From Narcine bancroftii (lineage: Eukaryota): DNA of 64,000 nucleotides. The position numbers and the translations under genes are program-made. Positions 527 through 60,800 of this stretch are shown here, one piece after another; the stretch's first letter is position 1, and every line of letters starts with the position of its first letter. A model generated the notes under the pieces. That model worked only from the letters and a program-made list of their open reading frames with translations. It did no database searches and was not told the DNA's origin. Location: contig NC_091472.1 of the NCBI RefSeq assembly GCF_036971445.1, positions 229,772,001-229,836,000 of the forward strand. Direction: 5' to 3'.

Positions 527-810
527 ATTCGTTACTCTTCTCCCAGTTATGGCACACAGGTTGGTGATCTCGGTGATTTCGTTCAGCTTTACAACTGAGG
601 CTCTCAGAGCGTCCTTGGTGCTGGGCACTCCTGCAGAGAGAGAGAGGGGGTGACAGTTGTACCAGACATTCCAACCAAGAATTATTTCTGCACAACATGG
701 AATGGAGTTAATTCCAATCACCCCTTGCTCTGAAAGATTCCCATTCTCCTGGACCTACCTGAACAGTGGAGAATCTGCACTGCAGCGATAGCGAGCAGGA
801 AGAACTGCAT
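527..810 (-). CDS. spp2: SPP2-like secreted cystatin-domain protein, copy A (5' part only, exons 1-2; the rest lies left of the window)
   Basis: Exon 1 810-759 encodes MQFFLLAIAAVQILHCS+G (52 nt, donor GTAGGT, phase 1). Exon 2 630-527 encodes (G)VPSTKDALRASVVKLNEITEITNLCAITGRRVTN (104 nt, acceptor ctgcag, donor GTAAGT). DALRASVVKLN resembles SPP24 DALSASVVKVN. Exon sizes match the other four copies. Confidence 0.8.
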
Positions 811-10470: not shown

Positions 10471-10956
10471 TCCTTCACCATCCTGAAGAGAGACATTGGT
10501 GACTGCTGGACGGGGAGGACGAGACAAGGAACCTTTATTCCTTATGTCAGCTCCTTCACCATCCTGAAGAGAGACATTGGTGACTGCTGGACGGGGAGGA
10601 CGAGACAAGGAACCTTTATTCCTTATGTCAGCTCCTTCACCATCCTGAAGAGAGACATTGGTGACTGCTGGACGGGGAGGACGAGACAAGGAACCTTTAT
10701 TCCTTATGTCAGCTCCTTCACCATCCTGAAGAGAGACATTGGTGACTGCTGGACGGGGAGGACGAGACAAGGAACCTTTATTCCTTATGTCAGCTCCTTC
10801 ACCATCCTGAAGAGAGACATTGGTGACTGCTGGACGGGGAGGACGAGGCAAGGAACCTTTATTCCTTATGTCAGCTCCTTCACCATCCTGAAGAGAGACA
10901 TTGGTGACTGCTGGACGGGGAGGACGAGACAAGGAACCTTTATTCCTTATGTCAGC
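10471..10956. repeat. 81-bp minisatellite, 6 near-identical copies
   Basis: Units begin tccttcaccatcctgaagagagac... at 10471, 10552, 10633, 10714, 10795 and 10876. Confidence 0.95.
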
Positions 10957-11888
10957 TCCTTCGTCACTGCCAAAGTCAAAGCAGGCAGTTATCTCTCTCA
11001 GAACTCAGGCATGAGTGTGACCGATCCATTCAATGATGGACAATGCAGTTTCCTCATCCAGAGTTCACTTTGTGTCCTTGTAGGTACTGAGTTGACTGAT
11101 TTGGAAGAATGCTGGCCCTTCACATGTAGTGATAAATGAGAGCTCCTTTCTTGTGCAACCTCTTTCCACAGAAACAGTTTTGAAGATTGTTAGGGGCCTC
11201 TTACATGAGTGTACAGCCTTTGTCATTATGGAGGAGCCTTGGTCATTGGCAATTACATCAGGCTGTTGATTGAGAAATCTGGGACCAGACCTTAACTTTC
11301 CTGAGAGAATGTTGCACTGTTGACTGGGGTCATGTCCGCATTTTGATGCATTCACCTTAAACTCCTCTCACTGCTGAAAATTTATAAGGTAATGGGTCAT
11401 TAAAGCTGATGACCCCTCAGAAAAAGTATTTTTAGATGAAGATTTTGCTTCCACTAATAAGAGATGGAAAATTATTAAAACTTTGAATGTTTTTGAATTG
11501 GAGCAGCAAAATAACAAACTTGTTTGGTCATGTGGACTCAAGGATCAATATTCGGTGCTGCCGCAATACCTCACCAAGCTACGTTGTTCATGTATCATTA
11601 TCTTTGCCTCAACAGTAGTTACAGCTCTGTGACTTGCTAAGTTTCTTCAGCATTTTTGTGTAAATTATATTCACAGAATCTTCAGATGCACTGAGCTACT
11701 GCTGGTGTTTGGATCAGGAAATGCATGGCTCTAAGTTCAGTCTGGATCACTCATGACCTTCTCCCCATGCTGTCACCAAAGCGTCTACACCCACCCAGAG
11801 AACGAAAGGGTGTATCAGTCAAATCCGAATGCAATTGGCAGAGGGAGAAACACATATCGTAGAAGGTCAGTAAATATTCATTTATCAT

Positions 11889-12091: not shown

Positions 12092-15000
12092 TTAATGTTG
12101 GTGCCTGGAATCCTCGTGTTCCTTGGAAGGACAGAATTAAGAGAACTGTTATTTTCCGGTCGGCTATCTTTGCTCCGAGTTCAGTATTTTATTCCTAGTG
12201 AAGGCAGCAATCAGACGACAACTATAGGGCACAGTTATACTTACATTTGAAAATTCTTCATGTGATAATTCTGTTGACTGACTTTTTGCCTGAATAAAAA
12301 TAGCAAAGACACAATTTTAGAATTATCCTCAAGTCAAAATGCAAAAACAATACTTCATTGTAAATCAGGAAGAGAGAACAAATAAAAGTTTGGGTTTCTA
12401 TTTGAAAGGGAGTTCAGTAAAGAACCCGAGTCCTCACTTTTTTAGTGTTACAATAATCGAGGAGTGTAGTGGGTTGAGGATCAATGGCCATTCTAATGTT
12501 GGAATAATGTCCCATCAACTGGCCTTCGTCAGCACCCAGAATCTCCGTCTGTGACAAGAAGAGATTATAATTTGCCAGATTAATCCATGGATTATATCTG
12601 TCCACTCACCATTGGAGTAGTGAGGGCGCACTGCTGCCTGCGATCTGGATCACTGCAAAGATCAGAGAGCAAACAGCAGTGATTTTGGAAAACCCAATAA
12701 CAACTGTGGCCCTATCTTTCATGAAGATGTAATATTATCTTCAGGTTCTATTCAATGCCTAATCCAAGTTTCCTTATTGTTTCAAGCTGCTCTTTTACAG
12801 AGAAGTCTGGTTCAACTTATTTGGGTTAGTGTCAGATATAACGGGGTAAAGTTAACTCCCCCACTCATCTTCCCATGAACCACCCCAGATTCCAACACTC
12901 ACCAGCAACAATTTACTGCCGTCTAACCCACAACTGTTTGGTGTGGAAGTGGGAACTGGGCCACCCTGAGGGAGCCCACCCAGACACAAGGAGAACATGC
13001 AATCTCCACACTGACTGCACCTAGTGTAGGATGGAAATTGGGAAACTAGAGCTGAGAAGCAGCAGCAACACCTGCTGTTCTCTCCCAAAATCTCTCTGTA
13101 AGAGAGATGAAACAGATAAAAATCTCTAATTAAACTTACATTTGAAGATTCCCGGACTTCTGTCTCTTCTGATTGACTTCTCACCTGTATAACAATATTG
13201 ATAATGTTATGTTCAGGACAAGGTAAATGACAACCAAATAAATTAATGTTGATCTCAAGATTATGAACATTTTATTGTTCAGTCTGGGCATGGCAAAAAC
13301 TGATTTAATGACTCAATAAGATGGTGATGAAGCCTCCACATACTCAGCACTTTACAGCAATGTTACTGCTACGTGGCCCTGGGTCAAAGGTAACCTAATG
13401 ACCAGGGACAATCCTCTCAACTGGTGCTTGTTGCATTGAACCTGCATCAGGAAGGGTGAGGACTTGGTGTTTTCTGTCGTAGAATGCAACACACTCTGTG
13501 TCTGATGCCACCCCTTCCTTCTACATTTAAAGCTATTCAGACAGGACCATGGATCAGAAAGATTTATGGGGATGTGGGAAAAATGATTTATATTTCAATG
13601 TACAGAACGGTCACAGGACCTTCTTCCCCACGAGCTTGTGCACCGTGAATACATCAATTTACTGTCAATCCCTGCACATTTTGGCAAATGGAGCCAGCTG
13701 AGGTAAACAACCTGGTTGGCCTGGATGAGATGGGCTGAAGGGACTTTATGATGCCATGAATCTCACAGGAGCTCGGCTCATTTCACCTTCAGAGAACCAA
13801 TTCAGGCTCTGTATTGGGATTAGATCATTTGACATGCAGTGGAAAGCCCACCTCTGAACCTCGTCATTCTTGTCATATTTTCATCTGGTACTTGTTTCCA
13901 ACCTGGCACAAATCAAGATCACGAAGATCGCGAACTCACAAGGCCTTTGTGAATACTCACATCTGATGTGTTCTCGAGGGATGTCTCCACGGATCTGGTT
14001 TTGACCTGTAAGCAAACATTAACAATTAAGCATTCGGCATAGGTCGTAAGGATTAACAGAGATCAGTTAATACAAAGGTAATTTACCACTGTGCTATTGT
14101 ATCATCTGGACATCAGGGGATCTTTGTTTAGAGCTCAGTCTTTGAGGGAGGTTCATTGCGAATATCTCAAAAATGTGCACTGCAGCAATGTTCAGTGGAG
14201 TTTGCTGCAATGGAGAACAGGGTCTGTGGGTCTGCTGCATTAACGTTCCACAGAATATCTCATTTAATTGAGGTGATTTGAAAGGTGTTGCTCTCCAGAA
14301 ATCATTGGTTGCATCTGTGCAGATTCCATGGTTGTGCTCACTCTCATTCTAGGTCACCCTAAATTCAGTGAAGAACAAACTCATCCTCGGAGAGCTCAGC
14401 GTTATGGCAGTGCTTGGTGTGCACACATTACAAGGATCTCTATTGACATGGGGTAATTATGTAACTAAATAGAATCCTCAAACCTGGCACAGCTTAACCT
14501 TAGTTATAGGCCTATTGTAGGTAAGAATTAGATGATAAAGCTCCTGGATTACATTTACCTTTAATGATGCTTCCAGTGACAAATCTTCTGACTGGCTTTG
14601 CCTCTGTATTAAAATAAATGCATATGTTTAGTTCAGAATTCACGGTTGCATAATGTAAATACTCTTTATTCACATATCTCCTAAAATGTTAAAATTTAAT
14701 TTACTTCATTAATAATGCGGTACAAAGCCCTTCTGGACCATGAAACCTGTCACAACCAGTGGGCCTACCAACCCCATCCGTTTTGTAGGTGAGAATATAC
14801 CGGAGTACGTGGGGAAAAGCAATGCAGGTCACGGGCAGAACGCACAAACTTCTCCCAGACGGTGATGGATTTGACAGTCACTGGGGCTGTAAGAGGGCTG
14901 CTTTACCAATGTGAAAGAGCTAATCATGGAACTTTTTACAGTTCTAATCAAAAGGTCAGAATTCAAGATCAATGAGAAAAGCATCTCCTAAATAGACGGC

Positions 15001-18000
15001 AGATCCTCTCCCACTGATTCCAATTCCCACCTGGCTTAGTCCCCGATGGAAACATCATTACTTTGATCTTCACCACGGAAGGCCAAAATCTCTTTTATTA
15101 CCTGATGCAATTTACTAACATGCACATGATATAGGTATTGGGGATTTGATAAACTGAGAGACTCTGGCTGAATTTTAGAGTGAGGAAGATCTCCTTAGTA
15201 TCACATGTTCTATAGTCATCACTCTCTGGAGGATGGAGAACTGTGGGGTCAAGGTATGGTGGGTGGGGGCAGCATGATGTTCACCATTAACTGGGTTGAC
15301 TTCCCTCAGAACTATTAAATTGTGCCAATTTCAGGAGGAAATTGCTATATGAGGTTGCCCCCAGGGATTGGCTTGATGTTGGCAGTGTTTTGAAAGTCCA
15401 GACTGTCGTCCGGGGCACCTCTGTCATTGAGATCCTCAGATTTGATCTTGTTGCTGAGAGTCAAAAAATTAAACTTACGTTTGAATGTTCCTCCAGTGAA
15501 GACTCTTCTGATCTGCTTTTCACCTATATTACAATATTAAGGTTTTTATGTTGAGCCCAGATTGCAGAATACACTTGATAATAATAAGCTTGTATTAAAC
15601 AACAAAGAACATTGCATGATAGACCATCAAAATTTCTTTCATTTATCATTATTGTGTTGAGCACAGTGCTACTGTTGGTGGTCCCTGACAACCGATGCTC
15701 TACAAATAATGTCGTCACCACAATCCCATTACTTTGGCATTCCTTCATCTTCAGGGGGAGAACCCATTCACCTTCCATATTGGGGGAAATTTTATTTTCC
15801 CTTGATGAATTTTTGAAATTTCTGACTGGAATCAGTCACCTGATTTCTCTCCCCTAATGCACTGAACTGAAATAATTTTGTAGCTCCGTTCTGGAAAAGC
15901 TGAGCATGGGATTTTACAACTTTATGAATAATTGAGACCAATGTGAAAATCATTTGTCAATACTCACATTTGAAATGTCCTCAAGTGATGACTCTGTCAA
16001 TTCTGTTAGATCCTGTTGGTAAAATGCAACGTTCACATCTTTAGTCCAGGAAATCAATAAAAATTTAACAAAAAACTCATGGGTTTCAAATCCCATTGAC
16101 TTGAAATGTATAACTGTGCGGTTACCTCAAATCTGGTTTCACTCGATTCCATGGAGTCACTCTCGCTGTCAACAGTCTTCAGACCTTCACACTCCACGTC
16201 AACGTATGCCACCTTATCAGCAAAATATTCCACCCGGCTTTTGCAAAACCCTCCTTCCTGTTGGAATAACATGTTGGGTCAAGTCACAAATTATTGCAGA
16301 GTCTGGACTGAAACAGGTTGTGATTTAGAATATAGAGCATTACTCCCTTGAGCCTATGATGTGGTACTAAACTATGGAAACACACTCCATAACAATCTAA
16401 ATTTTCGCCACCTCCCACCCATAACTCAATTTCCTGACATCCAAGTGCACATCTAAGAGCTTTTTGAATGTCCCTATTGTACCATTTATCCACCATCACC
16501 ACCAATGCATTCCAGGCACCCACCACTATCTGTGTGAAAATCTTACCTCTGATATCTCCCCAAACCTTTCTCCAATCACCTTCAACAGATGTTTCTATTA
16601 TAGTTGCTAACGTTGCTCCAGGAAAATGGTTCTGGCTGTCCACCCTATCTCAGCCCTTCAACAACTTAACGATGTACGTCGGTTAAGTTACCTCTCATTC
16701 TTCATCACTCCAAAGCGAAAAGCACTAGCTCTGCCAACCTTGCTTCATATGACATATTCTACAATTCAGGCAAAAGCCTGGTAAATCGCCTCTGCACCCT
16801 TTCAAAAACATTTACATCCGTCCTGTGATGACATGACCAGAACTGGTTTAATCTTCATTGTACATCATTTTGCAGCACATAATCCACAATGGCATGTGTT
16901 ATTTCAATCTTCATCAGTTTTTGAGGCTATTTATCAGCAGTCATGGCCTGCAAGTTATATGGAAAAGCACTCGTGGAGTCAAACAGCCCACTGGGTATGT
17001 ACTGACAAGTAAGTATTCATTTTACACTCATCCCATTGCCCCTATCCAATCTCCATTCTGTCACTTCCACCCCCAAGATTCCCTGGCCAGCAATCTACCC
17101 ACAGGGAAACTAACCAGTCCAAAGGATCTTTGGATTGGGAGGAAACCACACAGCCACAAAGAAAAGATGCAAACACCACAGGGGCAGTACCTGAGGTCAA
17201 TAAACTGGAGTTGTGGAGCCATTTCAATTCTATCTCTGCAACAACACTCTTTACTCAAGGTCACCTTTATTGTCATGTGAGAAAGTTTGTTTTTAAATAG
17301 TCCAGCAAGACGACCCAAACTTAGCACACACATAGTTTCCCTTGATATTACTAAGAACCCAGGGGTCTTTGTACCAGGTAACTTTAGGCTATGTTAATTT
17401 CAGGAGTTTTGTGCTGTGGTCCAATACACTACTCACAGCGGATTCTGATGCCACATGATGCTCAGGACTCACCGCGATCTTTCTGGGGCGGAAGTAGCAG
17501 CTGGGATCATCAAATTCCAGTCCGGAATTCTTGGAGCAGACGGTTTCTTTCACGGAGAATGTTAAATCCACGTTGTAGGACAGTTTGCCCGTGCGATAAG
17601 TCTATTAACAGGAAACAGGTCATGAACGTTAGCCATTGCAAATTGGTCAGATAAATCTTGGAGCAAACCATCTGAATGTTCCCTGTCAGTGGTTACAATG
17701 GGCCATCGGAATGACAGGGCAAGACAGACTAGAGATTAAACTCAGCCCAGCAACTATTTAACCCTTTGTCCGTCAGTGTGAAGATATTTAATTTGAAGGG
17801 GATATGAATGAATAAGTCTCCGACAATCAGGATTTGGAAATATATTTAAGAAGAAATATATATCAGACTATGGATGAAATTTGAAACAACAGTTTCACAT
17901 GTGGCTCCAATCTCCAAAGATAAAGACAGATTTAGAATTTCAATTCTTGAACTAAGACAGACACAAATTTAGATATAGACAGAGAGCATTACAGCACAGG

Positions 18001-18453
18001 CCCTTCAGCCCACAATGTTGTGCCAAACTATGTCAACCTTCTCCTCAACAATCTACTTTATCCTTATCCAACACCCATTCTCCTCTGTTTTGTTCCTGGT
18101 CACTGAACTGTGTTGATATGTGCTGTTCCTGCAGACCCCATCTGCGAAATCCACCTAAACCAGGAGACACTTACATTGGTCATTCTCCTCCCAGTGATGC
18201 CACACAAGTTGGGGATCTCAGTGATATAATTCAGTTTCAGAACTGAGGCTCTCAGAGCATCCTCAGGAACAGGCACCGCTGTAGAGAGAGAAGGAATATT
18301 TTACCAGCTGATTCCTTTACACAGGAGAACGTTATCACGGACTGAATCCCATTGCCAATCAGCCCATGCTCTGTGTAATTCCCACTCTCCCCTAAACCTA
18401 CCTGAGCAGTGGAGGATCTGCACTGCAGCGAGAGCGAGCAAAAGGTATGGCAT
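12092..18453 (-). CDS. spp2: SPP2-like secreted phosphoprotein, copy B (11 coding exons, ~238 aa, six 15-aa acidic Ser-rich modules)
   Basis: Exons: 18453-18402 MPYLLLALAAVQILHCS; 18278-18175 AVPVPEDALRASVLKLNYITEIPNLCGITGRRMTN; 17601-17473 TYRTGKLSYNVDLTFSVKETVCSKNSGLEFDDPSCYFRPRKIA; 16257-16126 EGGFCKSRVEYFADKVAYVDVECEGLKTVDSESDSMESSETRFE; 16012-15968 DLTELTESSLEDISN; 15523-15479 VKSRSEESSLEEHSN; 14603-14559 RQSQSEDLSLEASLK; 14005-13961 VKTRSVETSLENTSD; 13184-13140 VRSQSEETEVRESSN; 12289-12245 AKSQSTELSHEEFSN; 12121-12092 EHEDSRHQH*. All introns are GT-AG and the frame is open. The last acceptor (AAG) is the least certain. Confidence 0.85.
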
Positions 18454-23458: not shown

Positions 23459-26400
23459 TTAGTGTTGGTGCCTGGAATCCTCGTGTTCCTTGGAAGGACA
23501 GAATTAAAAGAACTGTTATTTTCAGGTGGGCTATCTTTGCTCCGAGTTCAGTATTTTATTCCTAGTGAAGGCAGCAATCAGAGGACAACTGTCGGGCACA
23601 GTTATACTTACATTTGAAAATTCTTCATGTGATAATTCTGTTGACTGACTTTTTGCCTGAATAAAAATAGCAACGTCACAATTTTAGAATTATCGCCAAG
23701 ACACAAAGCAAAAACAATACTTCATTGTAAATCAGGAAGAGAGAACAAATAAAAGTTTGGGTTTCTATTTGAAAGGGAGTTCAGTAAAGAACCCGAGTCC
23801 TCACTTTTTTAGTGTTACAATAATCGAGGAGTTGAGGATCAATGGCCATTCTAACGTTGGAATAATGTCCCATCAATTGGCCTTCGTCAACACCCAGAAT
23901 CTCTGTCTATGACAAGAGAGATTATCATTTGCCAGACTAATCCATGGATTATGTCTGTCCACTCTCCATTGGAGTAGTGAGGGCGCACTGCTGCCTGCGA
24001 TCTCGATCACTGCAAAGATCAGAGAGCAAGCAGCAGTGATTTTGGAAAACCCACTAACAACTATGGCCCTATGTTTCATTAGGATGTAATATTATGTTCA
24101 GGTTCTATTCAATGCCTAATCCAAGTTTCCTTATTGGTTCATGCTGCTCTTTTCCAGCGTAGGCTGGTTCAGCTTATTTGGGTTAGTGTCAGATATAACG
24201 GGGTAAAGTTAACTCCCCCACTCATCTTCCCATGAACCACCCCAGATTCCAACACTCACCAGCAACAAATTACTGCCGTCTAACCCACAACTGTTTGGTG
24301 TTGAAATGGGAACTGGGCCAGCCTGAGGGAGCTCACCCAGACACAAGGAGAACATGCAAACTCCACACTGACTGCACCTAGTGTAGGATGGAAATTGGGA
24401 AACTGGAGCTGAGAAGCAGCAGCAACACCTGCTGTTCTCTCCCAAAATCTCTCTGTAAGAGAGATGAAACAGATAAAAATCTCTAATTAAACTTACATTT
24501 GAAGATTCCCGGACTTCTGTCTCTTCTGATTGACTTCTCACCTGTATAACAATATTGATAATGTTATGTTCAGGACAGGGTAAGTGACAACCAAATAAAT
24601 TAATGTTGATCTCAAGATTATGAACATTGTATTGTTCAGTCTGGGCATGGCAAAAACTGATTTAATGACTCAATAAGATGGTGATGAAGCCTCCACATAC
24701 TCAGCACTGTACAGCAATGTTACTGATACGTGGCCCTGGGTCAAAGGTAACCTAATGACCAGGGACAATCCTATCAACTGGTGCTTGTTGCATTGAACCT
24801 GCATCAGGAAGGGGGAGGACTTGGTGTTTTTTGTCGTAGAATGCAACACACTCTGTGTCTGATGCCACCCCTTCCTTCTACATTTAAAGCTATTCAGACA
24901 GGACCATTGATCAGAAAGATTTATGTGGATGTGGGAAAAATGATTTATATTTCAATGTACAGAACAGTCACAGGACCTTCTTCCCCACGAACCTGTGCAC
25001 CTTGAATACATCAATTTGCTGTCAATCCCTGCACGTTTTGGCAAATGGAGCCAGCTGAGGTAAACAACCTGGTTGGCCTGGATGAGATGGGCTGAAGGGA
25101 CTTTATGATGCCATGAATCTCACAGAAGCTCGGCTCATTTCACCTTCAGAGAACTAATTCAGACTCTGTATTGGGATTAGATCGTTTGACATGCAGTAGA
25201 AAGCCCACGTCTGAACCACGTCAGTCTTGTCATATTTTCATCTGGTACTTGTTTCCAACCTGGCACAAATCAAGATCACGAAGATCGCGAACTCACAAGG
25301 CCTTTGTGAATGCTCACATCTGATGTGTTCTCGAGGGATGCCTCCACAGATCTGGTTTCGACCTGTAAGCAAACATTAACAATTAAGCATTCAGCATAGG
25401 TCATAATGATTAACAGAGATCAATTAATGCAAAGGTAATTTACCACTGAGCTATTGTATCATCTGGACATCAGGGGATTTTGTTTAGAGCTCAGTCTTTG
25501 AGGAAGGTTCACTGCGAATATCTCAACAATGTGCACTGCAGCAATGTTCAGTGGAGTTTGCTGCAATGGAGAACAGGGTCTGTGGGTCTGCTGCATTGAC
25601 CTTCCACAGAATATCTCATTTAATTGAGGTGATTTGAAAGGTGTTGCTCTCCAGAAATCATTGGTTGCATCTGTGCAGATACCACGGTTGTGCTCACTCT
25701 CATTCTAGGTCACCCTAAATTCAGTGAAGAACAAACTCATCCTCGGAGAGCTCAGTGTTCTGGCAGTGCTTGGTGTGCACACAGTACAAGGATCTCTATT
25801 GACATGGGGTAATTATGTAACTAAATAGAATCCTCAAACCTGGCACAGCTTAACCTTAGTTATAGGCCTATTGTAGGTAAGAATTAGATGATAAAGCTCC
25901 TGGATTACATTTACCTTTAATGATGCTTCCAGTGACAAATCTTCTGACTGGCTTTGCCTCTGTATTAATATAAATGCATATGTTTAGTTCAGAATTCACG
26001 GTTGCATAATATAAATACTCTCTATTCACATATCTCCTAAAATGTTGAAATTTAAATTACTTCATTTTTAATGCAATAGAAAGCCTTTCTGGACCATGAA
26101 ACCTGTCACAACCAATGGGCCTACCAACCCCATCCGTTTTGTAGGTGAGAATATACCGGAGTACGTGGGGAAAAGCAATGCAGGTCACGGGCAGAACGAA
26201 CAAACTTCTCCCAGACGGTGATGGATTTGACAGTCACTGGGGCTGTAAGAGGGCTGCTTTACCAATGTGGAAGAGCTAATCGTGGAACTTTTTACAGTCT
26301 TAATCAAAAGGTCAGAATTCAAGATCAATGAGAAAAGCATCTCCTAAATAGACAGCAGATCCTCTCCCATTGATTCCAATTCCCACCTGGCTTAGTCCCC

Positions 26401-29400
26401 GATGGAAACATCATGACTTTGATCTTCACCACGGAAGGCCAAAATCCCTTTTATTACCTGATGCAATTTACTAACATGCACATGATATAGGTATTGGGGA
26501 TTTGATAAACTGAGAGACTATGGCTGAAATTTAGAGTGAGGAAGATCTCCTTAGTATCACATGTTCTATAGTCATCACTCCCTGGAGGATGGAGAACTGT
26601 GGGGTCAAGGTATGGTGGGTGGGGGCAGCGTGATATTCACCATTAACTGGGTTGACTTCCCTCAGAACTATTAAATTGTGCCATTTTCAGGAGGAAATTG
26701 CTATATGAGGTTGCCCCCAGGGATTGGATTGATGTTTTGAAAGTCCAGAGTGTCCTCCGGGGCAACTCCGTCATTGAGATCCTCAGATTCGATCTTGTTG
26801 CTGAGAGTCAATAAATTAAACTTACGTTTGAATGCTCCTCCAGTGAAGACTCTTCTGATCTGCTTTCCACCTATATTATAATATTAAGATTTGTATTTTG
26901 AACACAGATTCCAGAATACACTTCATCATTATAAGCTTGTATTAAACAACAAAGAACATTACATGATTAACATAAAATAGATGACCATCAAAATTTCTTT
27001 CATTTATCATTATTGTGTTGAGCACAGTGCTACTGTTGGTGGTCCCTGACAACCGGCGCTCTACAAATAATGTCGTCACCACAATCCCATTACTTAGGCA
27101 TTCCTTCATCTTCAGGGGGAGAACCCATTCACCTTCCATATTGGGGGAAATTTTACTATCCCTTGATGAATTTTTGAAATTTCTGACTGCAATCAGACAC
27201 CTGATTTCTCTTCCCTAATGCACTGAACTGAAATAATTTTGTTGCTCCGTTCTGGAAAAGCTGAGCACAGGGTTTTACAAATTTATGGATAATTGAGACC
27301 AATGTGAAAATAATTTGTCAATACTCACATTTGAAATGTCCTCAAGTGATGACTCTGTCGATTCTGTTAGATCCTGTTGGAAAAATGCAATGTTCACATG
27401 TTTAGTCCAGGATATAAATAAGAATTTAGCAAAAAACTCATGGGTTTCAAATCCCATTGACTTGAAATGTATAACTGTGCGGTTACCTCAAATCTGGTTT
27501 CACTCGATTCCATGGAGTCACTCTCGCTGTCAACAGTCTTCAGACCTTCACACTCCACATCAACGTATGCCACCTTATCAGCAAAATATTCCACCCGGCT
27601 TTTGCAAAACCCTCCTTCCTGTTGGAATAACATGTTGGGTCAAATCACAAATTATTGCAGAGTCTGGATTGAAACAGGATGTGATTTAGAATATAGAGCA
27701 TTACTCCCTTCAGCGTATGCTGTGGTATTAACCTATGGAAACACATTCCATAACAATCTAAATTTTCCCCACCTCCCACCCATAACTCAATTTCCCGACA
27801 TCCAAGTGCACATCTAAGATCTTTTTGAATGTCCCTATTGTACCATTTATCCACCATCACCACCAATGCATTCCAGGCACCCACCACTATCTGTGTGAAA
27901 ATCTTACCTCTGATATCTCCCCAAACCTTTCTCCAATCACCTTCAACAGATGTTCTATTATAGTTGCTAACGTTGCTCCAGGAAAATGGTTCTGGCTGTC
28001 CACCCTATCTCAGCCCTTCAACATCTTAACTATGTATGTCAGTTAAGTTACCTCTCATTCTTCATCACTCCAAAGAGAAAAGCACTAGCTCTGCCATCCT
28101 TGATTCATATGACATATTCTACAATTCAGGCAACATCCTGATAAATCGCCTCAGCACCCTCTCAAAAGCATTTACATCCGTCCTGTGATGACGTGACCAG
28201 AACTGGTTTAATCTTCATTGTTCATCATTTTGCAGCTCCTAATCCACAATGGCAGGTGTTATTGCAATCTTCATCAGTTTTTGAGGCTCTTTATCAGCAG
28301 TCATTGCCTGCAAGTTATATGGAAAAGCACTCGTGGAGTCAAACAGCCCACTGGGTATGTGCTGACAAGTAAGTATTCATTTTACACTCATCCCATTGCC
28401 CCTCTCCAATCTCCATTCCGTCAGCTCCACCCCCACAATTCCCTGGCCAACAATCTACCCACAGCGGAACTAACTAGACCAAAGGATCTTTGGATTGGGA
28501 GGAAACCACACAGCCACAGGGAGAAGATGCATACTCCACTGGCAGTACCTGAGGTCAATAAACTGGAGCTGTGGAGCCACTTCAATGCTATCTCTGCAAC
28601 AACACTCTTTACTCAAGGTCACCTTTATTGTCATGTGAGAAAGTTTGTTTTTAAATAGTCCAGCAAGACGACCCAAACTTAGCACACACATAGTTTCCCT
28701 TGATATTACTAAGAACCCAGGGGTCTTTGTACCAGGTAACTTTAGGCTCTGTTAATTTCAAGAGTTTTGTGCTGTGGTTCAATACACTGCTCACAGCGGA
28801 TTCTGATGCCACATGATGCTCAGGACTCACCGCGATCTTTCTGGGGCGGAAGTAGCAGCTGGGATCATCAAATTCCAGTCCGGAATTCTTGGAACAGACG
28901 GTTTCTTTCACGGAGAATGTTAAATCCACATTGTAGGACAGTTTGCCCGTGCGATAAGTCTATTAACAGGAAACAGGTCATGAACGTTAGCCATTGCAAA
29001 TTGGTCAGATAAATCTTGGAACAAAACATCTGAGTGTTTCTTGTCTGTTATTACAATGGGCCATCAGAATGACAGGGCAAGACAGACTAGAGATTAAACT
29101 CAGCCCAGCAACTATTTAACCCTTTGTCTGTCAGTGTGAAGATGTATTGGATCCTTTAATTTTAAGGGGATATGAATGAATAAGTCTCCGACAATCAGGA
29201 TTTGGAAATATATTTAAGAAGAAATATATATAAGAAGAGTATGGATGAATTTCAAACAACAGTTTCACATGTGGCTCCAATCTCCAAAGATAAAGACAGA
29301 TTCAGAATTTCAATTCTTGAACTGAGACAGACACAAATTTAGATATAGACAGAAAGCATTACAGCACAGGCCCTTCAGTCCACAATGTTGTGCCAAACTA

Positions 29401-29822
29401 TGTCAACCTTCTCCTCAACAATCTACTTTATCCTTATCCAAACCCATTCTCCTCTGTTTTGTTCCTGGTCACTGACCAGTGTTGATATGTGCTGTTCCTG
29501 CAGACCCCATCTGCAAAATCCACCTAAACCAGGAGACACTTACATTGGTCATTCTCCTCCCAGTGATGCCACACAGGTTGGGAATCTCAGTGATATCATT
29601 CAGTTTCAGAACTGAGGCTCTCAGAGCATCCTCAGGATCAGGCACCGCTGTAGAGAGAGAAGGAATATTTTACCAGCTGATTCCTTTACACAGGAGAACG
29701 TTATCACGGACTGAATCCCATTGCCAATCAGCCCTTGCTCTGTGTGATTCCCACTATCCCCTAAACCTACCTGAGCAGTGGAGGATCTGCATTGCAGCGA
29801 GGGCGAGAAAAAAGTATGCCAT
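23459..29822 (-). CDS. spp2: SPP2-like secreted phosphoprotein, copy C (11 coding exons, ~238 aa)
   Basis: Exons: 29822-29771 MAYFFLALAAMQILHCS; 29647-29544 AVPDPEDALRASVLKLNDITEIPNLCGITGRRMTN; 28959-28831; 27618-27487; 27373-27329 DLTESTESSLEDISN; 26870-26826 VESRSEESSLEEHSN; 25959-25915 RQSQSEDLSLEASLK; 25362-25318 VETRSVEASLENTSD; 24541-24497 VRSQSEETEVRESSN; 23656-23612 AKSQSTELSHEEFSN; 23488-23459 EHEDSRHQH*. Splice sites are intact. Exons 3-4 encode the same protein as copy B. Confidence 0.85.
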
Positions 29823-34249: not shown

Positions 34250-37200
34250 TTAGTGTTGGTGCCTGGAATCCTCGTATTCCTTGGAAGGACAGAATTAAGA
34301 GAACTGTTATTTTCAGGTGGGCTATCTTTGCTCCGAGTTCAGTATTTTATTCCTAGTGAAGGCAGCAATCAGAGGACAACTGTCGGGCACAGTTATACTT
34401 ACATTTGAAAATTCTTCATGTGATAATTCTGTTGACTGACTTTTTGCCTGAATAAAAATAGCAAAGACACAATTTTGGAATTATCGCCAAGACAAAAAGC
34501 AAAAACAATACTTCGTTGTAAATCAGGAAGAGAGAACAAATAAAAGTTTGGGTTTCTATTTGAAAGGGAGTTCAGTAAAGAACCCGAGTCCTCACTTTTT
34601 TAGTGTTACAATAATCGAGGAGTGTAGTGGATTGAGGATCAATGGCCATTCTAACGTTGGAATAATGTCCCATCAACTAGCTTTCCTCAGGTCCCAGAAT
34701 CTCTGTCTGTGACAAGAAGAGATAATAATTTGCCAGACTAATCCATGGATTATGTCCATGGAGTAGTGAGGGCGCACTGCTGCCTGTGATCTGGATCACT
34801 GCAAAGATCAGAGAGCAAGCAGCAGTGATTTTGGAAAACCCACTAACAACTATGGCCCTATCTCTCATGAGGATGTAATATTATCTTCAGGTTCTATTCA
34901 ATGCCTAATCCAAGTTTCCTTATTGGTTCATGCTGCTCTTTTACAGAGGATGCTGGTTCAGCTTATTTGGGTTTGTGTCAGATATAACGGAGTAAACCTA
35001 ACCCCACAATCATTTTCCCATGAACCACCCCAGATTCCAACACTCACCAGCAACAATTTACTGGCGTCTAACCCACAACTGTTTGGTGTGGAAATGGTAA
35101 CCGGACCATCCTAAGGGAGCCCACCCAAACACAAGGAGAACATGCAAACTCCACATTAACTGCACCTAGTGTTGGATGGAAAAAGAGTAACTGGAGCTGA
35201 GAAGCAACAGCACCACCTGCTGTTCTCTCCCAAAATCCCACTGTAAGAGAGATGAAACAGATAAAAATCTCTAATTAAACTTTCATTTGAAGATTCCCGG
35301 ATTTCTGTCTCTTCTGATTGACTTCTCACCTGTATAACAATATTGATAAGGTTATGTTCAGGACAGGGTAATTGACAACGAAATTAATTAATGCTGATCT
35401 AAAGATTATGAACATTGCATTGTTCAATCTGGGCATGGCAAGAACTGATTCAATGACTCAGTAAGGTAGTGATGAAGCCTCCACATGCTCAACACTGCAC
35501 AGCAATATTCATGCTACGTGGCCCAGGGTCAAAGGTCATCTAATGACCAGGGACAATCCTCTCAAATGATGATTGTTGTATTGAACCTGCATCAGGAAGG
35601 TGAGGTCTTGGTGTTTATTCTTGTAGAATGTAACACACTCCGTGTCTGATGCCACCCCTTCCTTCTACATTTAAAGCTATCCAGTCAGGATCATGGATCA
35701 GAAAGATTTATGGGGATGTGTGAAAAATGATTTATATTTCAATGAACAGAACGGTCACAGGACCTTCTGGCCCACGAGCTTGTGCACCGTGAATACATCA
35801 ATTTACCATCAATCCTTGCATGTTTTGGCAAATGGAGCCAGCTGAGGTAAACAACCTGGTTGGCCTGGATGAGATGGGCTTAAGGAACTTTATGATGCCA
35901 TGAATCTCACATGGGCTCGGCTCATTTCACCTTCAGAGAACCAATTCAGGCTTTGTATTGGGATTAGATCGTTTGACATGCAGTGGAAAGCCCACGTCTG
36001 AACCACGTCAGTCTTGTCATATTTTCGTCTGGTACTTGTTTCCCTCCTGGCACAAATCAAGATCACGAAGATCGTGAACTCACAAGGCCCTGGTGAATAC
36101 TCACATCTGATGTGTTCTCGAGGGATGCCTCCACAGGTCTGGTTTTGACCTGTAAGCAAACATTAACAATTAAGCATTCGGCATAGGTCATAAAGATTAA
36201 CAGAGATCAATTAATGCAAAGGTCATTTACCACTGAGCTATTGTATCATCTGGACATCAGGGGATCTTTGTTTATAGCTCAGTATCTGAGGGAGGTTCAC
36301 TGCGAATATCTCAACAATGTGCACTGCAGCAATGTTCAGTGGAGTTTGCTGCAATGGAGAACAGGGTCTGTGGGTCTGCTGCATTGACCTTCCACAGAAT
36401 ATCTCATTTAATTGAGGTGATTTGAAATGTGTTGCTCTCCAGAAATCATTGGTTGCATCTGTGCAGATACCACGGTTGTGTTTACTCTCATTTTAGGTCA
36501 CCCTAAATTCAGTGAAGAACAAACTCATCCTCGGAGAGCTCAGCGTTCTGGCAGTGGTTGGTGTGCACACAGTACAAGGATCTCTATTGACATGGGTTAA
36601 TTATGTAACTAAATAGAATCCTCAAACCTGGCACAGCTTAACCTTAGTTATAGGCCTATTGTAGGTAAGAATTAGATGATAAAGCTCCTGGATTACATTT
36701 ACCTTTAATGATGCTTCCAGTGACAAATCTTCTGACTGGCTTTGCCTCTGTATTAATATAAATGCATATGTTTAGTTCAGAATTCACGGTTGCATAATGC
36801 AAATACTCTCTATTCACATATCTCCTAAAATGTTAAAATTTAAATTACTTCATTTTTAATGCAATAGAAAGCCCTTCTGGACCATGAAACCTGTCACAAC
36901 TAGTCGGCCTACCATCCCCATCCGTTTTGTAGGTGAGAATATACCGGAGTACGTGGGGAAAAGCAATGCAGGTCACGGGCAGAACGTACAAACTTCTCCC
37001 AGACGGTGATGAATTTGACGGTCACTAGGGCTGTAAGAGGGCTGTTTACCAATGTGGAAGAGCTAATCGTGGAACATTTTACAGTTCTAATCAAAAGTTC
37101 AGAACTCAAGATCAATGAAAAAAACATCTCCTAAATCGACAGCAGATCCTCTCCCACTGATTCCAATTCCCACCTGGATTAGTTCCCGATGGAAACATCA

Positions 37201-40200
37201 TTACTTAGATCTTCACCACGGATGGCCAAAATCCCTTTTTTTGCCTGATGCAATTTACTAACGTGCACATGATATAGGTATTGGGGATTTGATAAACTGA
37301 GAGACTGTGGCTGAATTTTAGAGTGAGGAAGATCTCCTTTGTATCACATGTTCTATAGTCATCACTCCCTGGAGGATGGAGAACTGTGAGGTCAATGTAT
37401 GGTGGGTGGGGGCAGCGTGATGTACACCATTATTTGGGTTGACTTCCCTCAGAACTATTAATTCGTTCCAATTTTAGGAGGAATTGCTATATGAGGTTAC
37501 CCTCATGGATTGGCTTAATGTTGCTATTGTTTTGAAAGTCCAAGACTGTCATCCGGCGAACCTCAATCATTGAGATCCTCATATTCGATCTTGTTGCTGA
37601 GAGGCAATAAATTAAACTTACCTTTGAATGCTCCTCCAGTGAAGACTCTTCTGATCTGCTTTTCACCTATATGATAATATTAAGATATGTATGTTGAACA
37701 CATTGCAGAATACACTTGATAATAATAAGCTTGTATTAAAGAACAAACAACATTGCATGATAGACATAAAATTGATGACCATCAAAATTTCTTTCATTTA
37801 TAATTATTGTGTTGAGCACTGTGCAACTGTTGGTGGATCCTGACGACCGATGCTCTACAAATAATGTCGTCACCACAATCCCATTACTTAGATATTCCTT
37901 CATCTTCAGGGGAGAAAACATTCACCTTCCATATTGAGGACAATTTTATTATCCCTTGATGAATTTTTGAAATATTTGTCTGCAATCAGGCACCTGATTT
38001 CTCTCCCCTAATGCACTGAACTGAAATAACTTCATAGCTCCGTTCTGGAAAAGCTGAATACGAGATTTTACAACTTTATGGATAATTGAGAAAATCATTT
38101 GTCAATACTCACATTTGAAATGTCCTCAAGTGATGACTCTATCGATTCTGTTAAATCCTGTTGGAAAAATGCAATATTCACATGTTTAGTCCAGGAAATC
38201 AATAAGAATTTAGCAAAAAAAAACTCATGGGGTTTCAAATCCCATTGACTTGAAATGTATAACTGTGCGGTTACCTCAAAGCTAGTTTCAATCGATTCCA
38301 TGGAGTCACTCTCGCTGTCAACAGTCTTCAGACCTTCACACTCCACATCAACGTATGCCACCTTATCAGCAAAATATTCCACCCGGCTTTTGCAAAACCC
38401 TCCTTCCTGTTGGAATAACATGTTGGGTCAAGTCACAAATTATTGCAGAGTCTGGACTGAAACAGGATGTGATTTAGAATATAGAGCATTACTGCCCTTC
38501 AGCCTATGCTGTGGTACTAACCTATGGAAACACACACCATAACAATCTGAATTTTCCCCACCTCCCACCCATAACTCTATTTTCCCGACATCCAAGTGCA
38601 CATCTAAGAGCTTTTTGAATGTCCCTATTGTACCATTTATCCAGCATCACCACCAATGCATTCCAGGCACCCACCACTATCTGTGTGAAAAACTTACCTC
38701 TGATATCTCCCCAAACCTTTCTCCAATCACCTTCAATATATGTTCTATTATAGTTGCTGATGTTGCCCCTGGAAAATGGTTCTGGCTGCCCACCCTATCT
38801 CAGTCCTTCAACATTTTAACTGTGTACCTCAGTTAAGTGACCTCTCATCTTTCGTCACTCCAAAGAGAAAAGCACTAGCTCTGCCAACCTTGCTTCATAT
38901 GACATATTCTACAATTCAGGCAACATCCTGGTAAATCTCCTCTTCACCCTCTCAAAAGCATTTACATCCGTCCTGTGATGACGTGACCAGAACTGGTTTA
39001 ATCTTCATTGTTCATCATTTTGCAGCTCCTAATCCACAATGGCAGGTGTTATTGCAATCTTCATCAGTTTTCGAGGCAGTCATGGCCTTCTTGTTATATC
39101 GTCAGAATTCGTGGAGTCATACAGCCCATTGGGTATGTACTAACAATTAAGCATTTATTTTACACTGATCCCATTGCTCCTCTCCAATCTCCATTCTGTC
39201 ACCTTCACCCCCACGATTCCCTGGCCAGCAATCTACCCACAGGGAAACTAACCAGTCCAAAGGATCTTTGGATTGGGAGGAAACCACACAGCCACAGGGA
39301 GAAGATGCAAACTCCACACAGGTAGTACCTGAGGTCAATAAACTGGAGCTGTGGAGCCACTTCAATGCTATCTCAACAGCAACACTCTTTACTCAAGGTC
39401 ACCTTTATTGTCATGTGAGAAAGTTTGTTTTTAAATAGTCCAGCAAGACGACCCAAACTTAGCACACACATAGTTTCTTTTGATATAACTCAGAACCCAG
39501 GGGTCTTTGAACCAGGTAATTTTATGCACTTTTAATTTCAGGAGTTTTGTGCTGTGGTCCAATACACTCCTCACAGAGGATTCTGGTACCATATGATGCT
39601 CAGGACTCACCGCGATCTTTCTGGGGCGGAAGTAGCAGCTGGGATCATCAAATTCCAGTCCGGAATTCTTGGAACAGACGGTTTCTTTCACGGAGAATGT
39701 TAAATCCACGTTGTAGGACAGTTTGCCCGTGCGATAAGTCTATTAACAGGAAACAGGTCATGAATGTTAGCCATTGTAAATTGGTCAGATAAAGCTTAGA
39801 ACAAAAATCTGAATGTTCCCTGTCAGTGGTTACAATGGGCCATCGGAATGACAGGGCAAGACAGACTAGAGATTAAACTCAACTCAGCAACTATTTAACC
39901 CTTTGTCCTTCAGTGTGAAGATGTATTGGAGCCTTTAATTTTAAGGGGATATGAATGAATAAGTCTCCGACAATCAGGATTTGGAAATATATTTAAGAAG
40001 AAATATATATAAGAAGAATATGGATGATTTTCAAACAACAGTTTCACATGTGGCTCCAATCTCCAAGGATAATGAAAGATTCAGAATTTCAATTCTTGAA
40101 CTGAGACAGACACAAATTTATATATAGAGAGAGAGCATTACAGCACGGGCCCTTCAGCTCACTATGTTGTGCCAAACTATGTCAACCTTTTCCTCAACAA

Positions 40201-40605
40201 TCTACTTTATCCTTATCCAACACCCATTCTCCTCTGTTTTGTTCCTGGTCACTGAACAGTGTTGTAATGTGCTGTTCCTGCAGACCCCATCTGCGAAATC
40301 CACCTAAACCAGGAGACACAAACCAGGAGACACTTACATTGGTCATTCTCCTCCCAGTGATGCCACACAGGTTGGGGATCCCAGTGATATCATTCAATTT
40401 CAGAACTGAGGCTCTCAGAGCATCCTCAGGTACGGGCACCCCTGTAGAGAGAGAAGGAACATTTTACCAGCTGATTCCTTTACACAGGAGAACGTTATCA
40501 CGGACTGAAGCCCATTGACAATCTGTGAGATTCCCACTCTCCCCTGAACCTACCTGAGCAGTGGAGGATCTGCACTGCAGCAAGGGCGAGCAAAAAGGAC
40601 AGCAT
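34250..40605 (-). CDS. spp2: SPP2-like secreted phosphoprotein, copy D (module exon 9 has a broken donor)
   Basis: Exons: 40605-40554 MLSFLLALAAVQILHCS; 40441-40338 GVPVPEDALRASVLKLNDITGIPNLCGITGRRMTN; 39739-39611; 38406-38275 ...SMESIETSFE; 38157-38113 DLTESIESSLEDISN; 37666-37622 VKSRSEESSLEEHSK; 36747-36703; 36149-36105 VKTRPVEASLENTSD; [35329-35285 VRSQSEETEIRESSN, donor GAAAGT]; 34447-34403; 34279-34250 EYEDSRHQH*. Confidence 0.8.
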
Positions 40606-56744: not shown

Positions 56745-57834
56745 TAAGGTGTATTTAAGGGAGAGATTGATAGGGGTTCTGATTAGCCATTGCATCAAAG
56801 GTTATGGGGAAGAGGTGGGCAGTGGGGCTGAGTGGGAAAATGGATCAGCTCATGATTGAAAGATGGGACAGACTCGATCAACTGAATAGCCTATTTCTGC
56901 TACTATGTCTTATGGTCTTATCTGCTAAAGAGCAAAACCAGCCACAGAAATAATTAGTAACCTGGTGTTATTAACTCTACAAGGTACCTAGCAGCCAAAC
57001 AAATCCAACCCACACCAGGGTCCAGGGAGCGGGTGGCTTGTGCCGATTGAACTACTTTTAGCTGATTCTACTGTCAAGATCATGTGTTGCTCATCCCTCA
57101 TTGTCCTTCAACTCCGAATTTCCTCATTTCTTTTGGGGAGCTATGAGGAGCTATTTCCACCACAGGGTGTGGATTCCCACTAAGGGCGGCCAAGTCAAGA
57201 GGCCCGAGTGACAATAGTCAGGTGCTGTTTTTTTTTTAGCTCTATTTAGTGCTGCTAACATTTTATTCTGGACGAATTAACTTTGGTGACTTTAAATATC
57301 CCATGGCTGTGGTTGCCTTGAAGCCCATCATCAGTCCAGGGCTTAGAATGTCTTTTTCAATTACAATATCGCAATGTTTGGCCATCATGCCACATGTGAA
57401 TTGCCACACTTGGAAGAATAAGTGAATATTTTTCTTGTACTTTTAATTTGATCCACAGAACAAAAGACACAACCAAAGGATAGATCATTTACAAACTATA
57501 GAATCTCTCAGTTATAGTGAAATGTACAGTCAGAGATCTGCAGAAACCCCTCCTTCCCCCCCCCCCCACCACTCCCTTATATGAACAATGAATAACAACA
57601 GATTAACAGCTTCTTCAATTTGATCGAGGCCTTCCGTGTCCACAAAAAGCCACTCATTTTTATTCACGGTCAATGTCTTGATTCCTTCTGGATTGGATTT
57701 CTGGAACCAACACAATGAATAGAGGTGTCATTTTTATGATCATCTAAGATGAGTTTGAACTCAATATTATTGTTGTACAGAAGGATCAAGAGGCAAGTGT
57801 CTAGCCTAAAGTCCTACTTACATCTGCAAGTTCC

Positions 57835-60800
57835 TCAGCCAATTATCCTTTTGACCTGCTTTACACCTGGAAGGAGACAATATTTCTCAGTAGCCTGAGT
57901 ATATCAAAGCTTTTGCATATCTTTGCAATGCATAAATGTAACTGAGAAACAGTTTGTGCATTACACTCGACTTCAGCATCTGCCGACTATCTTCCTTAAC
58001 TCTATTTGTATAGAATTATTTTTTGTTTTATGCAGTTAGTTACATAAATAAGATAAACAATATCAAATAAATGCATTTATAAAGGGTTAATTGCTTGAAT
58101 TTCAAAGTTGGAATCAAATGATTCCTCTCAAACATTTCCTGTTCAGTAGACAATGGACTCTCTGCCCCTATTGGTCAGAGACAATGGATTAACCGGCAAG
58201 TTGTTGAGATTATTGATCAGGTTGCCATTGTTGTAAGTATGGGGTTAATGGTTATAATCTGGGAGCTGGAGTGAATGTCATCAGCTCTCTCTTTGATGCC
58301 ATGAGGCGAAGAGAAGCGTTTGACCCCTCTTGGCCTGAACTCATTAAAATTTATGAGAATGAGGGAGGATCTCATTGAAACTTTTTGAATGTTGAAAGGC
58401 ATGGACAGTGTAGATCAGTGGATCCCTACTTACCACTTTAAGTATTCCCTATGTCATAGGTGGCCTGTGATTAGTAGGGTATGTGGATGGAGAGAAAAAG
58501 TTTGAAAACCAGTTTTAATTGTACCTAATTGACTCGTTATGTGCACGGTTTCATAACTCCAAAGGAAATGGGCCAATGACCATTTTTCTCAAGCAAAATA
58601 TTTCATTAACAATTGGGTCTAGAGCAGTGGTTCTCAACCTTCCCTTTCCACCCACATACCACCTTAAGCAATCCCTTACTAATCACAGAGCACTGATGGC
58701 AGAGGGATTACTTAAAATGGAAAGAAAAAGGTTGAGAACCACTGGATTAGATGTAGGAAGGTTTCATTTCTTCCAAGATTTACACAAATCCCATCCTCAC
58801 TCACTGCATCAGATGGAGCCCAAAATCAATGCATCTTAACAAGTCCAGCTAGTACCCTTTTACTCTTACCAATAATCTCCTGATTTACACTTACGTTTGT
58901 AGGCTCCTTGACGAGGCCTTCTCTTGAAGTTTATCTGTGTTTAAAAAAATGCATGTATTTAGTGCAAAGGAGCCAATGGTTAGTGTAGCAGTTAGTGCAA
59001 TGGTATAACAGTGCCAGTGACCTGTCAAATGCGCCACTGTCTGTAAGCAGTTTGCATGTTCTCCCTGTGTCTGCTTGGGTTTCTTCCAGGTGCTTCGGTT
59101 TCCTGCCACATTCCATAGACATATGGAGGGAGTAGGTTAATTTGGTGCATTTGGGGAGCATGGGTTTGTAGGCCGGAAGGGTCCGTTGCTATGCTATATC
59201 TCTAAATTAAAATTCAATTAAATATCAAAAAAATGTCGTTCTTAGCTCTTTCTAGGAAGTGCATCCCATTACTTGGAAATCAGATATGGATTTAGGGATG
59301 GAGAGGTGGCAAGTTGAATTGTGTTCTTATATTCCACGAGAAAATAACTTTTTTTTTTAAATATGGAGCCCATATTTACAGTATGTTGGTTTGAAGGTGT
59401 GAGGGGCTCTTGAAGGCCCGTCTCGTTGGTAACCCCTTAACTCTATTATTGTCTGTATTGAGAATAAATAATTCTTTCTGGCACTCTCCTAGTTTCTTTT
59501 TCTGTTTTCTTTCTATATTAGCCTAGGGTTGATGGGTGGGAGGGATAAGAGGTGTTTTTTAAATGCATATACTACATATATAATTTTTTATATACCTTTA
59601 TTGTACATAAAATTCTTAAATATAATGTTAAAAAAGTCAATGTTCTGAAGCCCTAAATATAAAGAGGAACTGTTCTCATAAATAATAGCAAAATGAATAA
59701 AGATTAGAAATCTGTTCCATGTACATGCATCAAGGTTCAATGATTTCAATAAATGTCAGAAAAGAGATACAAAGTACATTGGGTGATTGACACATGCGAC
59801 CAATGTTTCTAATATCACTGTCAATGAACCAATCAGGTGGGTTCAGGTCAGGCTTCCGTTTGGGGTGTCAGCAGAACATGAAGTTAAAAATAGAGGAAAA
59901 TTCTGATTCAAAGCACAAAATGCCCATGGCCCTGATCTGCAGGATGGCGGACTAACCTCAATACTGTTTTCACTCGATTCCATAGATCTACTTCTGTTGT
60001 CAATCGTCCTCAAGCCCCGGCACTCCACATCAATGTCAACAATCTTGCCAGCAAAGTATTCAACACGGCTTTTGCAGAAACCTTTTGCCTGTAGAAGTGA
60101 ATTATTTATTGAAATTGCTGCATGTCGACAGTAGACTCCAAGATACCTCAATGTTACACCCTTTGCGCTGCGTTCTGCTTTATCTCAGTACACCCAAGAG
60201 CTTCAACGCTAGAGTAAAACACAGGGCTCACCGCATTCTTTTTGGAGCGGAAGCGGCATCTGGGATGATCAAACTGCAGTCGGGACTTTTTGGAGCAGAC
60301 GGTTTCTTTCACGTTGAAAGCTAAATCCACGTTGTATGAAAATTTGCCTGTGCGATAAACCTAATGAAGGGAAAGGTTGCATTATTATATACTTTTATAA
60401 CTCTAACACAGGCACAGTAAAACTTGGAGTGATGTAGATATTTACATTCAAAGGAGGCCTCGATGCCACATTCAGCATTAGTGATTGGCGCAATGCGAAT
60501 ACAGCACCAGTGACCGGGTTAGAATCTGTCGCTATCAGTCAGGAGTTTGTACGTTCTCCCCACGGTCTGCGTGGGTTTCTCTGGGTGCTCCAGTTTCCTC
60601 CCACCCTTCAAAATGTACAAGGTTGGTGGATTAATTGGTGGCCAGAATCAGCTTCCACCAAATTGTAAACAAATTAAAATGATCATATCACGTGACTTGA
60701 AGCTTTAATTTGTTAAACAGAAAATTATGCCTTTAACTGTCACGATGATAAAGTACTGGAATCTTCCACAACAGGTGAGAGGTAAACAGGATCTGAAAAT

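Follow-up and report, generated by a model that had tools for sequence, protein, structure and literature searches.

Exon modules and an opposite-charge reading frame in the spp2.3 gene cluster of Narcine bancroftii

Results

The acidic tail of copy A is built from six 45-nt exons

We analysed a stretch of 64,000 nucleotides (nt) from Narcine bancroftii (contig NC_091472.1, positions 229,772,001 to 229,836,000; hereafter the window), in which an original prediction had described a cystatin-domain gene with an acidic tail grown by exon duplication. The window contains three tandem units, each about 11 kb long and near-identical (90-94% alike), with one 11-exon gene apiece on the minus strand. 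The predicted exons were recovered, but the stretch marked out for them covers only copy A, the first of the three near-identical copies. The exons of copy A are as follows.

18402..18453, minus strand: exon 1, signal peptide (by eye and from the family alignment), 52 nt, ends in phase 1
18175..18278, minus strand: exon 2, where the cystatin-like domain starts, with an extra Cys43
17473..17601, minus strand: exon 3, Spp-24 domain, with Cys74 and Cys87
16126..16257, minus strand: exon 4, 19-residue Cys100-Cys118 loop (TRH1/BBP-equivalent) and Ser cluster
15968..16012, minus strand: module 1, 45 nt, phase 0-0
15479..15523, minus strand: module 2, 45 nt, phase 0-0
14559..14603, minus strand: module 3, 45 nt, phase 0-0
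13961..14005, minus strand: module 4, 45 nt, phase 0-0
13140..13184, minus strand: module 5 (exon 9), 45 nt, phase 0-0
12245..12289, minus strand: module 6, 45 nt, phase 0-0
12092..12121, minus strand: last coding exon with the stop, 30 nt

As predicted, six exons of exactly 45 nt, all in phase 0 and bounded by AG and GT, lie 3' of exon 4. Nine of the ten coding introns of copy A are in phase 0, intron 1 being in phase 1. The spliced frame of 238 amino acids (aa) is identical to P0002, which is RefSeq XP_069786579.1, annotated as "secreted phosphoprotein 24-like" of Narcine bancroftii. This protein matched Pfam Spp-24 with 32.9 bits (cut-off 26), and its four domain cysteines (C74, C87, C100 and C118) were invariant across 33 aligned relatives. 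The 19-residue loop is kept, and a Ser-rich stretch follows the domain at the end of exon 4. The Arg-rich C-terminus, a feature chiefly of the sarcopterygian and lamprey members of SPP2/Spp24, is absent from copy A, whose tail has a net charge of -20; a basic tail was found only in genes of the copy D type described below. Mammalian SPP2/Spp24 thus shares with copy A the signal peptide, the Spp-24 domain, the four cysteines, the loop and the Ser cluster; it differs in being a single, liver-expressed gene with 2-4 S-x-E motifs, an Arg-rich end and no 15-aa modules, and it lacks the fifth mature cysteine of copy A. That cysteine, C43 in exon 2, is common to spp2.2, spp2.3 and Callorhinchus, is not found in spp2.1 or bony vertebrates, and was lost from copy D; if exposed, it could form inter-chain disulphides.

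On a quick IQ-TREE phylogeny of 122 domains by 102 columns, copy A was placed beside the spp2.3 proteins of the catshark and separately from spp2.2, spp2.1 and Callorhinchus. The 112-row group was supported by a Shimodaira-Hasegawa approximate likelihood ratio test (SH-aLRT) value of 93, in a tree of few columns that is weakly resolved and carries SH-aLRT support only, without bootstrap. On its sequence, we assign copy A to the elasmobranch spp2.3 paralogues, within a tandem cluster of at least 10 genes.

The tail of copy A holds 32 Asp or Glu residues in 120 aa. Past the last cysteine, copy A has 12 S-x-E motifs and copy B has 13, compared with means of 6.0 and 6.7 in shuffled tails (p=0.003); the expected high count was therefore correct, the figure of about 12 given for copy B being in fact 13. 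The calculated net charge of the copy A tail would fall from -20 unphosphorylated to about -44 with every S-x-E phosphorylated. The six modules are pairwise identical at 20-30 of 45 nt and are therefore duplicates of one exon, which supports the proposed serial duplication of a symmetric exon. A profile built from the modules scored 23-71 bits on the acidic modules of the cluster and stayed at or below 12 bits in shuffled DNA (200 kb). Among the 19 acidic modules of the Narcine genome, none contains a stop in frame 0, six do in the +1 frame and eight in the +2 frame, and third codon positions vary most. We also considered a block duplication of modules 1-3 into 4-6 and rejected it, as the intron flanks were unsupportive: only modules 2 and 3 upstream (z 3.3) and modules 3 and 6 downstream (z 3.7) stood out. 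As a candidate source of the module, the end of exon 4 was compared with it in three spp2.3 genes; 0/60, 5/60 and 25/60 shuffles scored as well.

Splicing of the modules

Splicing was followed in contigs of three public runs (X1-X3) from one study, presumed to be RNA. Joints were seen for all ten introns of copy A. The expected inclusion of all six 45-nt exons was thus borne out joint by joint, but module 5 is not constitutive: one X3 contig of depth 82, with difference counts that agree with copy A, contains it, and contigs from all three runs skip it. The six modules never occurred together on a single contig of the three runs; that one molecule includes them all is supported by the pairwise joints and the RefSeq model. 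RefSeq isoform X1 has a 111-nt in-frame cassette between modules 5 and 6 (12438-12548), which no contig covered; the contigs joined across it. Among 26 alleles tested from these contigs, copy C matched 26 and copy B 19.

The module is conserved across sharks and rays

Module counts, which had been suggested as a check across sharks, rays and chimaeras, were made in 159 chondrichthyan proteins, comprising the best 120 hits and some cluster members. The anchor motif was missing from ten of these and the usual last exon from 48; 27 were basic-tailed and 74 were complete. Tail length was exactly divisible by 15 aa in 52 of the 74 complete tails, and the number of modules per tail, from 0 to 7, varied between and within species; the chimaera Callorhinchus had no 15-aa modules. 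Over 141 distinct modules, S5 was conserved in 97%, E7 in 94%, S9 in 89% and E11 in 83%, giving two S-x-E per module. Modules 2, 4, 5 and 6 matched their positional counterparts best in one Hypanus and one Amblyraja protein, and the array therefore predates these lineages. Near-identical, recently duplicated modules were found in Mustelus. In contrast, 15-aa modules were absent from all 17 bony-vertebrate-type tails (five named, the others assigned by resemblance), which had 2-4 S-x-E each; the modular tail is not standard there, as the prediction had supposed.

A first module shorter by 5 nt gives a paralogue a basic tail

A fourth gene of the window, copy D, has the following exons.

62253-62304, 62039-62142, 60232-60360 and 59957-60088, minus strand: exons 1-4, intact frame
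58895..58934, minus strand: 40-nt exon, a module minus 5 nt, phase 0 to 1, shifts the frame
57822..57866, minus strand: 45-nt module, basic peptide then stop in the +1 frame, two stops in the acidic frame

The intact frame ruled out copy D as a pseudogene. A second cluster gene (P0097) is built in the same way, with a 40-nt exon followed by a 45-nt exon in the +1 frame. Compared with the module majority, the two 45-nt exons agree at 30 and 35 of 45 nt; the two 40-nt exons can each be aligned to the module profile by opening a single 5-nt gap (p=0.002 each). With the first module 5 nt shorter, the following 45-nt exon is read in the +1 frame and yields a Lys/Arg tail. The charge after exon 4 ranged from +6 to +16 in the basic tails, with +3 in one extended model. 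Six distinct basic 14-mers from other species each beat 1000 shuffles when compared with acidic modules translated in +1. Where copy D and P0097 differ in the 45-nt exon, the +1 frame counts four of five changed codons as synonymous and frame 0 one of five; these substitutions favour the new frame.

The 13-residue first exon followed by KR(V/E)KQ(I/V)K was present in at least 16 of 22 species, including sharks and rays, which argues against an assembly error. The six species without a basic-frame protein in the set were three skates, two Mobula and Carcharodon. No frame-shifted gene was found in skates within the protein set; a skate paralogue (P0102, P0158 and P0159, from three skates) owes its basic tail to point changes in frame 0, and in P0102 the charge after exon 4 is +10. 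The basic tail had no match in Atlas, and its hydrophobic moment was no higher than that of shuffles, so an amphipathic tail was rejected.

In the catshark, XP_038646303 (Spp2.3s2) and XP_038646306 (Spp2.3s1) both carry the basic tail. From Table 2 of PMC13188829, s1 and s2 make up 42-45% of spp2.3 transcripts per million (TPM) in jaw, cranium and vertebrae, a figure limited by read mapping among close paralogues. The s2 probe in the supplement of that article shows the basic layout; it was synthesised from the gene model and is therefore not independent evidence. That the basic genes could be the gill-expressed spp2.1 was ruled out by its Table S14. In P0130 (catshark Spp2.3s2), the 45-nt module has been duplicated in the basic frame as well, doubling the cationic peptide.

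Other genes and features of the cluster

The remaining genes of the window are listed here.

23459..29822, minus strand: copy B, 11 exons as in copy A, six modules, 13 S-x-E
34250..40605, minus strand: copy C, six modules, module 5 (35285-35329) with a GA donor; the best-covered RNA contigs come from this copy
527..810, minus strand: copy E, exons 1-2 (ends approximate), gene extends beyond the window

Copy E has two modules, at G000:C9:229770088 and 229769428. Exon 3 had 10 genome matches within 290 kb of contig C9, and the cluster includes one more divergent, spp2.1-like gene. The latter (G000:C9:229866439-229872572, L008-L009) has a 51-nt exon 5 and no 45-nt module; a likely Arg/Lys-rich last exon sits in L008 around 7770-7920, ahead of a long array of simple repeats. 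The cluster consists of two oppositely oriented arms (G000:C9:229744-229836 kb and 229956-230046 kb), each with a basic-frame gene, which suggests an inversion or an inverted duplication. In the P0032 gene (G000:C9:230033896-230045722, L025-L026), the module 1 donor is GC, with a GT four bases further along, and module 2 measures 39 nt. RefSeq gives it an acidic isoform X2 and +1-frame isoforms X1 and X3, and alternative splicing may flip the tail frame inside this single gene. Elsewhere in the window, an 81-nt minisatellite at 10471-10962 (6.1 copies, 99% alike) has one minus-strand frame open for 164 codons and is probably non-coding; a partial unit lies at 21854-21980. A degraded open reading frame at 53000-53900 on the minus strand resembles, by eye, a LINE-1-type ORF1.

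Discussion

The chondrichthyan spp2 expansion, its SxE accumulation, the analogy with SCPPs and a proposed role in cartilage mineralisation were described in 2026 (PMC13188829), and Table S14 of that article includes the gene studied here, LOC138760056. Its spp2.3 clade is the same family as copy A, with the same tandem cluster and SxE-rich tail, and the catshark spp2.3 genes are reported there to be expressed in mineralising chondrocytes and not in liver. The biology of copy A is thus largely published already: the gene is real and was correctly predicted, yet it is a member of a characterised family. In the main text of that article the terms 'exon', 'intron' and 'splic' do not occur, and 'frame' occurs only within 'framework'. 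Neither the exon-module array nor the opposite-charge frame reading was found in print in the literature outside subscription journals and theses. PMC13188829 regards loss of the Arg-rich C-terminus as the usual condition of spp2.2 and spp2.3, states that SxE accumulates in every duplicate and gives an Arg-rich end only to catshark spp2.1 (and L2); unlike this statement, the RefSeq proteins of catshark s1 and s2 have 3 S-x-E and tails of +10 and +14.

Taking these data together, we consider it likely that the symmetric-exon array of spp2.3 encodes a putative phospho-polyanion and its +1-frame paralogue a polycation, with a division of labour between mineral and polyanions. The protein is likely secreted by mineralising chondrocytes, and FAM20C is predicted to phosphorylate two serines in each module, which would take the tail from -20 to about -44. 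The phosphorylated tail would bind calcium phosphate as a matrix polyanion whose charge is set in steps of 15 aa; because each module exon is in phase 0-0, gain, loss or skipping of a module alters the charge and leaves the frame intact. In one spp2.3 lineage the first module would have lost 5 nt, likely in a single event before the shark-ray split, so that the next exon came to be read in +1 as a Lys/Arg-rich peptide. This switch likely re-created the ancestral Spp24 layout of a cystatin domain, a short Ser cluster and a basic tail. Within one tissue, acidic paralogues would then serve mineral, and basic ones would bind polyanions, be these glycosaminoglycans, BMP/TGF-beta or the acidic tails themselves. 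In mammalian Spp24, truncating the Arg-rich C-terminus lowers the affinity for BMP-2 and TGF-beta (PMC3753320); since copy A lacks that terminus, it could bind growth factors weakly, and the basic paralogue may restore the Arg-rich layout.

A link to mineralised cartilage, already proposed in the original prediction, is supported through the catshark orthologues expressed in mineralising chondrocytes (PMC13188829). The prediction had also named teeth and denticles; these are unlikely sites, since almost no catshark spp2.3 transcript is present in denticles or dental lamina (TPM 0.05-1.3; PMC13188829 Table 2), and liver is likewise essentially silent.

Several observations weigh against this joint reading. 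Expression of the ray gene in mineralising chondrocytes is likely, but is borrowed from the catshark. Of the complete tails, 22 of 74 are not exact multiples of 15 aa, and the 22 S-x-E of Callorhinchus are built from 5- and 10-aa repeats instead of 15-aa modules. Changed module codons among copies A, B and C are mostly non-synonymous (4/6, 6/8 and 6/7), which gives no sign of purifying selection at this depth. In the 40-nt exon of the two basic genes, nine of ten changed codons are non-synonymous, and this exon is far less conserved. On the domain tree the basic genes are not monophyletic and group by lineage, so a single origin would need gene conversion. Furthermore, the 40-nt exon also resembles exon 5 of spp2.1 (p=0.001 and 0.04), and back-translation of the 13-aa exons to an acidic module passed at 2% in only 6 of 15 distinct exons.

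The last two points bear on the order of the two frames. Human SPP2 exons 5-7 have phases 0-1, 1-1 and 1-end. These phases and the Arg-rich tails of bony-vertebrate SPP2 and of spp2.1, together with the likeness to spp2.1 exon 5, would fit an ancestral basic frame, from which the acidic module arose by losing a frame-shifting exon. We regard this order as quite improbable. Both spp2.2, with one frame-0 module, and the acidic Callorhinchus lie outside the group that holds all basic genes, the 40-nt exon begins in frame 0 as modules do, and the module profile has no match to spp2.1 exon 5 (37/60 shuffles as good). In addition, the 13-aa exon of Heptranchias back-translates to an acidic module end, with 0/300 shuffles as good. 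The position of spp2.2 and Callorhinchus and the Heptranchias exon make the acidic frame first the better reading of the comparisons.

Module number might instead simply drift, with the cluster mattering only for dosage and extra modules tolerated because the frame is kept. Counts that range from 0 to 7 both among and within species, the lack of an excess of synonymous change in copies A, B and C, the broken module-5 donor of copy C and the near-identical recent modules of Mustelus are what drift would leave. It is nevertheless unlikely in our view, given the 83-97% conservation of the S and E positions in 141 modules, the positional conservation of modules 2, 4, 5 and 6 across three ray genera, and a divergence of 2-3% in module DNA among the three copies against 6-10% over whole units. 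A stronger form of our reading is a charge-complementary pair made from one exon, with which sharks and rays would mineralise their cartilage: the frame-0 phospho-polyanion and the 5-nt-deletion polycation, fixed before the shark-ray split and co-expressed at similar levels, would act together by mutual complexing, or the polycation would neutralise sulphated proteoglycans as the polyanion delivers mineral. We hold this only tentatively and think it rather doubtful. The nearest analogue of such a charge flip is given by +1 frameshift mutants of calreticulin exon 9 (PMC4740452), in which a small indel turns an acidic tail positive; those mutations are somatic and disease-associated in an endoplasmic reticulum protein, whereas the spp2.3 flip is a germline paralogue kept across sharks and rays.

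The basic-frame paralogue could also be read as a cathelicidin-like antimicrobial precursor, with a cathelin-like domain, an acidic spacer and a cationic peptide. Ray basic tails end in Gly, a possible amidation signal. The solved structures nearest the family profile are cathelicidin and protegrin prodomains, and the tail charge of +6 to +16 (+3 in the extended model) would suit such a peptide; the likeness, a cathelin-like domain followed by a cationic C-terminal peptide, extends to the copy D type only. Pfam, however, gives Spp-24: exon 3 of copy A matched Spp-24 with E 5e-5 compared with E 0.1 for Cathelicidins, and P0002 had no Cathelicidins hit, in scans made on copy A and not on copy D. 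The hydrophobic moment of the basic tails is not above that of shuffles (p=0.14-0.61). Expression is skeletal: catshark s1 and s2 reach TPM 370-2700 in cartilage and barely appear in gill, blood and spleen (PMC13188829). An antimicrobial role is thus a poor prospect.

Copy A resembles the SCPP genes, including the elasmobranch scpp (PMC9122587), in being secreted and D/E-rich with S-x-E, in its mostly phase-0 introns and in growth by exon duplication, which is frequent in SCPPs (PMC13367325). Shuffling of the module from an scpp or sparc-L gene, making the tail an SCPP by descent, would account for the shared phase 0, S-x-E and D/E richness, yet we find it extremely improbable. SCPPs originate from 5' exons of sparc-L and adjoin it (PMC9122587), and none of the seven SPARC-family matches lies on contig C9, all being on C5, C8, C15, C21 and C27. 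The module pattern, with at most one mismatch, occurred at five places in 3.3 Gb, none outside the spp2.3 cluster, and the repeat of the elasmobranch scpp is an 8-aa motif (PMC9122587). SCPPs have no other folded domain; copy A keeps its cystatin-like domain, and its first intron is in phase 1. By these comparisons copy A would work like an acidic SCPP but is not one by descent, and the convergence that had been proposed is supported. The accompanying idea of a lineage with a reduced classical SCPP repertoire was overstated, as elasmobranchs possess their own scpp gene (PMC9122587).

The means by which sharks and rays, lacking the bony-fish SCPP set, mineralise their cartilage are still sought, and spp2.3 is at present the leading candidate. 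The modular exon build and the conserved opposite-charge reading are the two points that we did not find in print, and both can be tested directly. The former turns the total number of modules per genome into a countable variable that can be compared with the degree of mineralisation. The latter alters how published expression is read, since 42-45% of catshark skeletal spp2.3 mRNA, by the Table 2 TPMs of PMC13188829, is basic-tailed. It is also a clean example of a frameshift that yielded a lasting paralogue of opposite charge and, if the charge-complementary pair is true, would stand as a functional parallel, in the germline, to the calreticulin frameshift.

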